64,000 bases of DNA from an uncultured Eubacteriales bacterium (lineage in GTDB: Bacteria; Bacillota; Clostridia; Lachnospirales; JAISER01), in contig CAZJGG010000008.1 of assembly GCA_964545475.1 (NCBI GenBank), positions 666-64,665 of the forward strand. The letters are read 5' to 3'. Both the position numbers and the translations under genes were made by a program. Positions 6,375 to 62,939 of this stretch are shown piece by piece. A model generated the notes under the pieces. That model had not been told where the DNA came from and searched no databases. It worked only from the letters and a program-made list of their open reading frames with translations. Within the stretch, counting starts at the first letter, position 1, and the number at the start of each line of letters is the position of its first letter.

Positions 6375-6398
6375 TAGAGCAATTTGCAAAAAAACTAT
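6375..6398 (+). repeat. Mini-derivative or footprint of the 103-bp element (both termini, no interior)
   Basis: TAGAGCAATTTG is directly joined to CAAAaaaaCTAT. In the full element the ends are TAGAGCAATTTG...CAAATAGCTATA. Confidence 0.5.
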
Positions 6399-6501: not shown

Positions 6502-6604
6502 TAGAGCAATTTGACAAAACATTGACAGGTGTGGAGCGGAAACAGCAAACGTTTCACCGCTGTTTTCGCGAACATAGCTGTTTATGTTTTTGCAAATAGC
6601 TATA
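6502..6604 (+). mobile_element. 103-bp hairpin MITE-like element, copy 1 (most diverged, 96/103 versus copy 2)
   Basis: It has the same termini and architecture as the copies at 7226, 60375 and 62837, and is flanked by TA on both ends. Confidence 0.8.
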
Positions 6605-6739: not shown

Positions 6740-6896
6740 GTGAGTTCGACGAAGTCGAAAAGCCGCTTTAGCGGCTTAATTGCGGAGCAATTCTCATGTT
6801 ATGAGCGACAATCTACGGCGGTTTTTGCCGCAAATGGTGCGAATATAGTCAAAGTTCGATGAAAATTATATTTTTTATAATTTTCGTCGAACTCAC
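6740..6896. repeat. 157-bp unit closed by a perfect 14-bp inverted repeat, with several internal hairpins
   Basis: GTGAGTTCGACGAA (6740-6753) is the exact reverse complement of TTCGTCGAACTCAC (6883-6896). Internal palindromes are AAGCCGC-ttta-GCGGCTT, CTCAT-gtt-ATGAG and CGGC-ggttttt-GCCG. Confidence 0.6.
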
Positions 6897-6942
6897 ATTA
6901 TTTTCCTATATTTTGACGGTATAATAGAATTAGAAACAGGAG

Positions 6943-7808
6943 GTGCGCAGTGAAAAAACAAAATTATTATTTGCAGTATTTTTGCTCTTAACATTATTAT
7001 TTTTATTTGATGTAGATTTATCCAATAAGGATTACGGCTCATGTCTGCCCACAAATGTTATAGTTCATTGGCAGGAATTTGAAAATTCTTCATTCCCAGT
7101 TGTTGCCTCGTGTGAAAACGAGGATACATATTTATATGGGTGAAAAGAATTTGATAAAGTTATTGTAAGGCATAAAGATGTTTTTCAAGCCTTTGATTGG
7201 TATTACACAACGCCAAGAAGATTTTTAGAGCAATTTGACAAAACATTAACAGGTGTGGAGCAGGAACAGCAAACGTTTCACCGCTGTTCCTGAGAACATA
7301 GCTGTTTATGTTTTTGCAAATAGCTATACCCCAAATGAAAGTGTGTGATATTGATGGAGACGGTGCAGACGAAATTGCTGTAAGCATGAATATGGGTTCA
7401 GGAACAGGCATAAGCATTTATGAGCTTCATATACTTGAAATTTTAAATGATAGGTTTATTGACAATAAATTTTTGTTAGAACCAGGAAGCGATTTATCTG
7501 CTTTAGGCATTGACTTTAAAATTACAAAGGAAAACGATAAAACATTTTTAACCCTCTATAATAATTCGGAGTTAGAAGCTGTGCAGGATATTACAGAATA
7601 TGGGTTAACTGAAAATGATGTTAAATTTTCATATGGTTACATTGTGGAATTTAATATTTTGGAAAACGGAGAAATTGAAATGAATGTGGCCGTTGGTCTT
7701 GATACTGTAAGTGAAGCTACGATTATTTATCTTTTTGATGTAAAAGCTTCAATTAAATATGAAAAAGACGGTGGGTTTTCATTTAAAGTTAAGTCAATAA
7801 CAGAGTAA
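6943..7808 (+). pseudogene. Inactivated paralog of the 7881-8630 gene (in-frame TGA at 7141 plus a 101-bp element insertion)
   Basis: The ORF fragments 6943-7143 and 7308-7808 are together colinear with the 249-aa protein encoded at 7881-8630 (EDTYLYG, MKV.D.DGDG..EIA, YELHILEI, KDGGFSFKV). They are interrupted by a stop codon and by the repeat at 7226-7328. Confidence 0.8.
7226..7328 (+). mobile_element. 103-bp hairpin MITE-like element, copy 2 (inserted in a coding sequence at a TA)
   Basis: It differs from copy 3 at 1 of 103 positions. Removing the element plus one TA restores the host reading frame. Confidence 0.85.
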
Positions 7809-7880: not shown

Positions 7881-8630
7881 ATGAAAAAAAGGTTACACAC
7901 AATTATGTTTTTTTGTATTTCTGTGATTATTGTATTTGTTTCATATATATACGGAAAAAGTAATCTTTTTAATAAAGTTATAGCTAGCCAACTGGAATTT
8001 GATGAATCTTGTCCGCAATTAGTTGCTGTTTGTGAGAAAGAAGATACATATTTATATGGCGTTGGATATGAAAAAGTTATTCTAAAACATAAAGGCATAA
8101 CTCAAGAGTTTAATTGGAATTATTTACAAATAAGGTTTGACTTACCTAAAATGAAAGTTTTTGATTTTGATTCAGACGGCAAAGAAGAGATAGCGATAAG
8201 TATTAACACCCGTGCAGGAGTAGGTACAACTGTGTATGAGCTTCATATTCTAGAGATTGAGGAAAACGGATTTATGGACCAGAAATTTATGTTAGACGGT
8301 AGAAGCTATGATATATCTACGCTTGGAATTAATTATGAATTTAACAAGGAAAATGATGAAATGTTTTTAAATATTTATAATGAAGAGAGGACAATTCATT
8401 CTCAAAATGTAACAAAATATAATTTAAATGAAGACAATTTAAGATTATGTTATGGGGATTATGTTATATTTAATCCTTTAGAATGCGGCGATATAGAAAT
8501 GTATGTATTAATAGATGTGAGAAACGATGAAGTAGGACGCATATGTTATTTTTACAATTTTAAGGCATTATTAAGTTATAATAAAGACGGTGGGTTTTCA
8601 TTTAAAGTGAATGATATGACAGAGGGATAA
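7881..8630 (+). CDS. Hypothetical membrane-anchored protein with a DxDxDG (FG-GAP/VCBS-like) motif
   Basis: An AGGAGGG RBS precedes it. It has an N-terminal hydrophobic anchor, an FDFDSDGKEEIA motif, and a paralog immediately upstream. Confidence 0.75.
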   Translation: MKKRLHTIMFFCISVIIVFVSYIYGKSNLFNKVIASQLEFDESCPQLVAVCEKEDTYLYGVGYEKVILKHKGITQEFNWNYLQIRFDLPKMKVFDFDSDGKEEIAISINTRAGVGTTVYELHILEIEENGFMDQKFMLDGRSYDISTLGINYEFNKENDEMFLNIYNEERTIHSQNVTKYNLNEDNLRLCYGDYVIFNPLECGDIEMYVLIDVRNDEVGRICYFYNFKALLSYNKDGGFSFKVNDMTEG

Positions 8631-56898: not shown

Positions 56899-57007
56899 AA
56901 AGAGTGTTTAAAAAATAAAACTTGCCAAATTTAGGGCATGTTCAAAGTCTCTGAAATGGAGACTGTGAACAGGCTCTTAGGCGAGTTTTATTTTTTAAAC
57001 ACTCTTT
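56899..57007. repeat. 109-bp palindromic element with perfect 24-bp arms, downstream of kdgK
   Basis: AAAGAGTGTTTAAAAAATAAAACT (56899-56922) is the exact reverse complement of 56984-57007. The interior holds a second hairpin AGTCTC-tgaaatg-GAGACT. The core is 28/35 identical to 60195-60229. Confidence 0.7.
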
Positions 57008-59715: not shown

Positions 59716-60177
59716 ATGAAAAAATCCATTAATTTATTCCAGATTAGAAAGATTGCTGAAAATTACTATGCTAATGGTGACTTTTACTGTTCGGAAGCAA
59801 TCGTAAAAACTATAATCGATGAATTCGATCTACCAAAGAATGATGAAGCAATTAAAATGGCTTCTGGTTTTCCGGTTGGGATTGGTGGGAAAGGATGCAC
59901 CTGTGGTGCAATTTCTGGTGGAGTTTTGGCAATTGGATTGTTTTTTGGAAGAAGTGTAGGCAAAAACCCTGCTGTACACAAAGCTATGGAACTTAGCGGA
60001 AAGCTATACGACATGTTTACTGAGAAACAGCGTTCATCGTGTTGCCGTGTGTTGACAAAAGGCATGACGCTTGGTTCTGATGAACACATGAGCCAGTGTG
60101 TCTCCTTTACGGGTTATGTTGCCTATGAAACGGCAAAAATGATTGCCGAAGAGCTGAATCTAGAGATTATTGAGTGA
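59716..60177 (+). CDS. C_GCAxxG_C_C family putative redox-active protein
   Basis: It has CSEAI near the N-terminus and the diagnostic GCTCGAISGG motif. It lies 46 nt downstream of the MCP gene on the same strand. Confidence 0.75.
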   Translation: MKKSINLFQIRKIAENYYANGDFYCSEAIVKTIIDEFDLPKNDEAIKMASGFPVGIGGKGCTCGAISGGVLAIGLFFGRSVGKNPAVHKAMELSGKLYDMFTEKQRSSCCRVLTKGMTLGSDEHMSQCVSFTGYVAYETAKMIAEELNLEIIE

Positions 60178-60264
60178 TAAAGCTATTTGCCGAAAAGACA
60201 CTGAAATGGAGATTGCAAAAAGGCCCTTAAATGGGCGCATTATACCGCTTAATAAATTGCTATA
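60177..60264 (-). repeat. 88-bp element with the termini of the 103-bp MITE (inverted orientation) but a different interior
   Basis: It begins AGCTATTTGC (the reverse complement of GCAAATAGCT) and ends AAATTGCTATA (close to the reverse complement of TAGAGCAATTT). Its interior is homologous to the core of the 56899-57007 palindrome. Confidence 0.5.
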
Positions 60265-60374
60265 TTTTTCAGGGGTTTTGGTAGAGCAATTAGATAGAAC
60301 ACAACGCTAATAACTGGAAAATATTTTTGGCGTATTTTGGCTAATTTTTATATAAATAATGGGTATAATCTACA

Positions 60375-60477
60375 TAGAGCAATTTGACAAAACATTAACA
60401 GGTGTGGAGCAGGAACAGCAAACGATTCACCGCTGTTCCTGAGAACATAGCTGTTTATGTTTTTGCAAATAGCTATA
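60375..60477 (+). mobile_element. 103-bp hairpin MITE-like element, copy 3
   Basis: It is 102/103 identical to copy 2. The only difference is at loop position 51. Confidence 0.85.
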
Positions 60478-62836: not shown

Positions 62837-62939
62837 TAGAGCAATTTGACAAAACATTGACAGGTGTGGAGCAGGAACAGCAAACGTTTCACCGCTGTCC
62901 CTACGAACATAGCTGTTTATGTTTTTGCAAATAGCTATA
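62837..62939 (+). mobile_element. 103-bp hairpin MITE-like element, copy 4 (99/103 versus copy 2, stem partly decayed)
   Basis: It has the same termini. Three substitutions in the 3' arm of the apical stem are not compensated. Confidence 0.8.

Follow-up and report, generated by a model that had tools for sequence, protein, structure and literature searches.

The 103-bp hairpin unit at positions 7226-7328 of the window (the whole stretch of 64,000 nucleotides analysed here) is very probably a non-autonomous MITE of the IS630 family that would be mobilised at its ends by the transposase of a full-length relative, with duplication of the TA dinucleotide into which it inserts. It is a RUP-like MITE, an undescribed family of a well-known kind of bacterial repeat, and its predicted membership in IS630 rests on its ends. 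As the original prediction had claimed, a total of four full copies are present in the window; they lie at 6502-6604 (copy 1), 7226-7328 (copy 2), 60375-60477 (copy 3), and 62837-62939 (copy 4), all of them on the + strand. Three of the four are intergenic, including copies 1 and 4, each of which lies directly past a terminator-like hairpin, and one (copy 2) lies within a defective gene. The copies are 92-99% identical (1 to 8 pairwise differences per 103 positions). Copy 1 is the most diverged, with 7-8 differences, while the sole difference between copies 2 and 3 is at position 51 (T versus A), in agreement with the single mismatch in 103 positions originally counted; this near-identity suggests that the MITE has been active recently.

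Copy 2 reads TAGAGCAATTTGACAAAACATTAACAGGTGTGGAGCAGGAACAGCAAACGTTTCACCGCTGTTCCTGAGAACATAGCTGTTTATGTTTTTGCAAATAGCTATA and consists of a 99-bp element proper (7228-7326) with TA on either side (7226-7227 and 7327-7328). When the four copies were aligned together with 30 nt of each flank, similarity extended from exactly TAGAGC to exactly GCTATA. The flanks are unrelated to each other, such that units with sharp TA...TA borders are found dispersed across 64 kb. It should be noted that, while TA bounds all four window copies, this is a weak test because TA is part of the conserved unit; TA flanks on further copies would therefore provide no independent test of duplication. The left terminus of copy 2 (7226-7246, + strand) is TAGAGCAATTTGACAAAACAT, and its right terminus (7308-7328, − strand) reads TATAGCTATTTGCAAAAACAT as the reverse complement, the last 12 nt of the unit being CAAATAGCTATA. 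The terminal inverted repeats, TAGAGCAATTTG versus TATAGCTATTTG, match at 10 of 12 positions. The unit is non-coding and is crossed by a single ORF, a chance frame of 31 aa. Exact occurrences of the 12-mer TAGAGCAATTTG number five in 64 kb, all on the + strand, where ~0.01 would be expected given the length and base count; four of these open the full 103-bp copies. The fifth, a solo terminus at 6375-6386 that is followed by CAAAAAAACTATC and is located 127 nt upstream of copy 1, is a putative remnant or mini-element.

Exact searches of 185,579 species-representative genomes (among which the species of the window has no representative) returned no matches to a 22-mer of the left end and none to a 23-mer of the central hairpin, indicating that the 103-bp MITE is carried by no representative genome. 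The whole MITE was also absent from the metagenome and viral collections, while its terminus was present in metagenomes.

Over its full length, the 103-bp unit forms a long imperfect hairpin in which the arms formed by the terminal inverted repeats contain mismatches and measure ~30 bp. The minimum energy was -25.2 kcal/mol when folded as DNA (z = -6.95) and -42.7 kcal/mol when folded as RNA (z = -8.28), and none of 200 shuffles equalled either value. The hairpin predicted at 7226-7328 was thus recovered with exact borders and a fold z of about -7 to -8. At its centre is a G+C-rich stem-loop (7261-7292, + strand) that comprises a 10-bp stem (7261-7270 paired with 7283-7292) and a 12-nt loop. 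In copy 1 (6502), two pairs of this stem are kept by changes on both sides, while in copy 4 (62837) two pairs are broken. A reading of the unit as a terminator was ruled out, as a terminator scan calls none there and no T-run is found past the stem. Further, the element had no match in Rfam, either at the gathering threshold or at E <= 1.

A hairpin of this strength is also a point in favour of a stationary repeat of the REP, BOX, or terminator type, with a role at the RNA or DNA level and a history of spread by recombination. The two stem pairs kept by double changes in copy 6502 can be read in the same way, as can the orientation of the copies, all four of which are co-oriented with neighbouring genes and two of which lie directly past terminator-like hairpins. 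We nevertheless regard a stationary repeat as extremely doubtful. One copy is inside a coding sequence and leaves a precise 101-bp footprint there, the unit shares its termini with IS630-family elements (both described below), and it has neither a T-run past its stem, nor a called terminator, nor an Rfam family; moreover, co-orientation of four out of four copies would arise by chance in 1 in 8 to 1 in 16 cases.

Unlikely, although with a small chance of being correct, is the additional possibility that the mobile MITE has been co-opted for a second function, as an RNA hairpin on the sense strand, for example a stabiliser or processing site at the 3' end of mRNA. Co-option of this type would explain the conserved central stem together with the uniform orientation, and it has in its favour the two compensatory pairs in the central G+C-rich stem as well as the placement of all four copies on the sense strand of their flanking genes, two of them directly behind terminators. 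Correia elements have been proposed to undergo processing by RNase III and to regulate mRNA (PMC2229807). However, the case is made from only four copies, one of which (62837) breaks two pairs of that same stem, and intra-strand templated repair in palindromic DNA yields paired changes without any selection.

Evidence for the identity of the MITE comes from its ends. No IS630-type transposase is encoded in the window (tblastn, best E = 1.3), and for this type the original prediction that the window contains no transposase gene is borne out. The same prediction proposed a search for an IS630-family transposase with terminal inverted repeats that match TAGAGCAATTTG, and in metagenomes that search was positive, yielding IS of 1014-1025 bp. 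The metagenome scan, with the terminus TAKAGCWATTTGMMAAAACAT as query, returned 68 loci, many of which are chance matches, either in one conserved gene or in a phage. In at least 11 metagenome contigs, the terminus, in the form TA(G/T)AGCAATTTGACAAAACAT, is found ~60-70 nt upstream of an ORF that starts MP(A/S/K/Q/R)PLS.DLRKRI. A complete IS of 1014-1025 bp is present in five contigs (L114, L136, L137, L142, and L170), with right ends that read ..CAAATTGCTATA, ..CAATTTGCTATA, ..CCAATTGCTATA, or ..CAATCCGCTCTA and with TA at both ends in all five copies. TA is likewise found on both sides of 8/8 related elements (5 IS, 1 deletion derivative, and 2 MITEs); a 47-bp mini-element in L125 has an end with TG rather than TA. 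The left terminus of the window MITE matches the left end of the L142 IS at 21/21 nt (25/27 nt when extended) and those of the L114, L136, and L137 IS at 20/21 nt each, and the last 12 nt of the MITE match the IS right end CAAATTGCTATA at 11 of 12 positions. Beyond the terminal 21-27 nt, no convincing similarity between the MITE interior and the IS was detected.

Full translations were obtained for three of the elements, those in L114 (329-1353), L136 (66-1089), and L137 (94-1114). In each, the transposase frame is split at a run of seven to eight A residues (A7-A8), beyond which it continues in the +1 frame. Unsplit versions of the protein, of 306-314 aa, are present in the protein database. 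Either homopolymer errors or programmed transcriptional slippage, which is reported to occur in certain IS630 members, would be compatible with the split. When joined, the transposase scored 171 bits on the NCBIfam model NF033545 'IS630 family transposase' (cut-off 100) and matched Pfam DDE_3 with E = 2e-33, along with weaker matches to PAX, HTH_32, and the Sleeping-Beauty HTH (HTH_SB). The distance from the D in IMDNL to the E in NPIEMMW, counted by inspection, is 34 residues, which is the spacing of the Tc1/IS630 group. The nearest annotated plasmid-borne relatives are IS630-family transposases of ~40% identity, indicating that the IS clade is divergent and, within these collections, unnamed. 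Three arbitrarily chosen Logan homologs of the transposase came from runs other than the samples of this genome.

These comparisons bear on a further alternative, namely that the MITE is moved by another transposase family, such as the ISL2 or IS427 group of the IS5 family, and that its match to IS630 ends is convergent. The element proper starts with GAG, as do many IS5-family ends in the ISfinder tables, and the single contig of this genome provides no IS630 partner. This alternative is nonetheless very unlikely given that, in no fewer than 11 independent IS630-type contigs, 20-21 of 21 nt match at the very tip of the element, that this tip is always ~60-70 nt before the transposase start, that the right end matches too, and that none of the elements seen with these ends was of the IS5 type. 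The agreement of the termini with IS630-family elements at 20-21 of 21 nt instead supports the IS630/Tc1-mariner-type MITE that had been predicted. PATE elements of the IS200/IS605 type and REP elements that depend on RAYT carry sub-terminal hairpins and no terminal inverted repeats, and they insert 3' of a fixed tetra- or pentanucleotide without duplication. Both were ruled out for the 103-bp element, as the left flanks of its four copies share no motif; its true terminal inverted repeats and the DDE type of the partner enzyme also argue against them.

The IS clade has also given rise to shorter elements. Two contigs, L086 (2294-2659, + strand) and L106, carry a 366-bp internal-deletion derivative with the same ends, in which the first ~20 codons of the transposase gene are fused to the last ~85 codons (the C-terminal DDE tail). 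The presence of this derivative at two different loci indicates that it is itself a mobilised non-autonomous element. Additionally, a 103-bp MITE in L140 (1822-1924, + strand) and a 105-bp MITE in L146 (317-421, + strand) share the 21-nt left terminus of the window element but have a different interior. MITEs with the same ends and another interior indicate that the IS clade yielded at least one other type of ~100-bp MITE. The recurrence of a size of ~103-105 bp, here in two copies, could hint that selection or the transposase favours a certain size and shape. In L165, at ~1040-1100 of the + strand, the same IS terminus directly adjoins 38 nt similar to the beginning of a second transposase gene, of which an intact copy lies ~280 nt further on, in what appears to be a nested or rearranged IS arrangement.

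Contigs L140 and L125 belong to the Oscillospiraceae MAG Lab288P3bin192, recovered from the gut of the termite Labiotermes (PMC7024585). Contig L165 belongs to a Deferribacteraceae MAG with an isolate name, Coa324_bin33, that fits the naming scheme of Lab288P3bin192, and for one housekeeping gene in the window, several of the closest homologs come from MAGs that are named in that scheme. This suggests that the organism from which the window derives shares the termite-gut habitat of these MAGs.

The footprint left by copy 2 in its host gene provides a second line of evidence. The 5' fragment of the disrupted gene occupies 6943-7227 (+ strand, in the frame of the paralog alignment) and the 3' fragment 7329-7808 (+ strand), from which the NCBI annotation derives a 157-aa product that starts at the ATG at 7335. 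An intact tandem paralog of 249 aa follows at 7881-8630 (+ strand) and served as the template for an in-silico empty site. The proteins of the tandem pair (6943-7808 and 7881-8630) are orphans with an N-terminal hydrophobic segment; for the paralog, no Pfam family was found and, among 5.8 billion proteins, no homolog beyond its own copies. When deletions of 98 to 105 bp were made in silico, the downstream frame was open only with 98, 101, and 104 bp. The 101-bp deletion (7228-7328) was the sole size that gave a gapless junction (RRF-L-PQMKV versus RFD-L-PKMKV in the paralog), confirming that excision of this length joins the two fragments in frame and without gaps against the paralog. Across the junction, where 7227 is joined to 7329 (..AGATTTTTA followed by CCCCAAATG..), the reconstructed product reads WYYTTPRRF-L-PQMKVCDIDGDG and the paralog reads WNYLQIRFD-L-PKMKVFDFDSDG. 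The two proteins are 43% identical over 251 residues (E = 2e-66), and their alignment is free of gaps from 27 residues before the junction to 55 residues after it.

The point of insertion of copy 2 is the TA of a TTA codon (7225-7227). Three 101-bp deletions (7226-7326, 7227-7327, and 7228-7328) yield one and the same product because TA is repeated. A single product from the three deletions is what a TA duplication would predict, and an element that carried TA at one end would be expected to look identical. As judged from the paralog, an empty site reconstructed in silico favours a 101-bp insertion that leaves one TA. Together with what is known of the family, this 101-bp footprint points to a duplication of TA upon insertion.

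Excision of the MITE brings the frames back into register locally, as predicted, but the gene that results is still not intact. The 5' fragment contains an in-frame TGA (7141-7143, + strand), a second lesion that is independent of the MITE. TGA is a genuine stop in the window, where it closes 4 of 39 long ORFs, and its use as a sense codon was ruled out because it terminates such ORFs. Moreover, the start and the body of the gene are in different frames. The Shine-Dalgarno sequence AGGAGG at 6938-6943 is followed by a GTG at 6950 and a run of six A residues at 6953-6958 (all + strand); this GTG, the only start with a proper Shine-Dalgarno sequence, reads MKKQNYYLQYFCS and then meets a stop, after 13 codons. 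The out-of-frame start is probably a third lesion caused by the loss of 1 nt in the A6 run, since the addition of one A to this run would give MKKTKLLFAVF..., parallel to MKKRLHTIMFF in the paralog. With an in-frame TGA and an out-of-frame start, excision of the element mends the local register and not the whole gene. The host gene is a multiply damaged pseudogene that was not knocked out by the element alone. Among 5.8 billion proteins, no intact allele of the host gene was found, the search returning only the 157-aa fragment from the source contig. A 156-bp element is located at 6741-6896, just upstream of the promoter region of the pseudogene; it is bounded by inverted repeats of 14 nt (GTGAGTTCGACGAA / TTCGTCGAACTCAC), contains several hairpins (DNA fold z = -7.0), and has no other copy in the window.

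Searches for a natural empty site drew on public sequence data. Among the public contigs of the 7226 locus none was empty, each being either filled or broken within the element. An exact look-up of the neighbour proteins of three insertion sites recovered nothing other than the source contig and, from runs SRR10912415-17, Logan contigs that all end in the element or carry it at these sites. Orthologous loci were sought via a 4-hydroxybutyryl-CoA dehydratase-like neighbour, the best relatives of which are just 76-78% identical and spread over many orders; no close genome is therefore at hand for an empty-site comparison. In-silico empty sites of the eight related elements likewise gave 0 matches when compared with all fetched loci.

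The breaks in these independent assemblies could also be taken as a sign of an assembly artefact, in which a short repeat misjoined two contigs of a metagenome-assembled genome: the source is apparently a metagenome assembly, and the Logan assemblies break at every copy. An artefact is, however, barely credible for copy 2, on the two sides of which lie the halves of one gene, colinear with the paralog. A chimeric join would not produce halves that come into register after a 101-bp excision. Further, an independent Logan contig (L001) carries the same right junction, in which the last 28 nt of the element are joined to the same downstream sequence as in copy 7226.

Taken as a MITE, the unit would work as follows. 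Its ends (~21-27 nt) would carry the recognition sequence of an IS630-type DDE transposase, an enzyme predicted to combine a paired/HTH DNA-binding domain with a catalytic domain of the DD34E type. The transposase may be supplied in trans by a full-length copy at another place in the genome or within the community, and mobilisation in trans is what the shared ends suggest. It would excise the MITE and paste it into a TA dinucleotide, and this TA would be duplicated on repair. In the case of copy 7226, the insertion would have hit a TTA codon in one member of the tandem pair of orphan paralogs.

The window contains additional palindromes and repeats. Between two + strand genes, at 56899-57007, is a 109-nt near-perfect hairpin with 31-nt arms that are 94% complementary (DNA fold z = -13.3) and with no match in Rfam; it may be a bidirectional terminator or belong to a further family of palindromic repeats. 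The core of this hairpin (56944-56979) shares 81% identity with 60194-60229. An 87-bp stretch at 60178-60264 (+ strand), directly past the stop of 59716..60177, has ends (TAAAGCTATTTG ... TAAATTGCTATA) that are terminus-like 12-mers. This stretch does not fold into a hairpin (z = 0.67) and is possibly a decayed relative of the MITE, an assignment that is uncertain. A further terminus-like 12-mer is present at 60282.

Several described pairs of a short repeat and an IS can be compared with the system outlined here. The eukaryotic Stowaway MITEs and Tc1/mariner elements fall into one superfamily with IS630, duplicate a TA target, and have only the termini in common between the non-autonomous and the autonomous element; the system described here differs in its bacterial host and bacterial IS630-type transposase. 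Nezha and other cyanobacterial IS630-derived MITEs have terminal inverted repeats that match those of an IS630-family IS (ISNpu3-like) and also duplicate TA. They come from another phylum and differ in sequence. The link between RUP and IS630-Spn1 was reportedly established in 1999, and to the best of our knowledge RUP and the 103-bp unit share no sequence similarity. RUP, of Streptococcus pneumoniae, is a 107-bp repeat with IS630-Spn1-like terminal inverted repeats, TA targets, a long stem-loop, and near-identical copies that have been read as a sign of recent mobility, and it is the only bacterial repeat with terminal inverted repeats that match an IS according to the same review (PMC2229807). 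The 103-bp unit resembles RUP in its size of ~100 bp (107 versus 103), in being non-coding, in having terminal inverted repeats in common with an IS630-family IS, TA at both ends, insertion at TA, and a long stem-loop, and in its host from the Bacillota. In contrast to RUP, the partner IS clade here is ~40% identical to annotated plasmid IS630 transposases and was located in metagenome contigs, a number of which are of termite-gut origin; the one contig of this genome contains no partner. The Correia/NEMIS elements of Neisseria, of 105-155 bp, also combine terminal inverted repeats, TA duplication, and a long hairpin and often lie next to genes (PMC2229807). No partner IS is named for Correia in that review, whereas here a partner has been identified at the level of the family. 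The Correia elements and the Stowaway and Tc1/mariner pairs share the way of working proposed for the 103-bp MITE.

No concept is changed by this finding, since the relationship between RUP and IS630-Spn1 is already the same. The gain is, first, one of annotation, as the element accounts for the split pseudogene at 6943-7808 and for the breaks of short-read assemblies at its copies. Second, catalogues of mobile elements gain an undescribed IS630 clade with a graded series that leads from the full IS, through a 366-bp derivative, to MITEs of ~100 bp.
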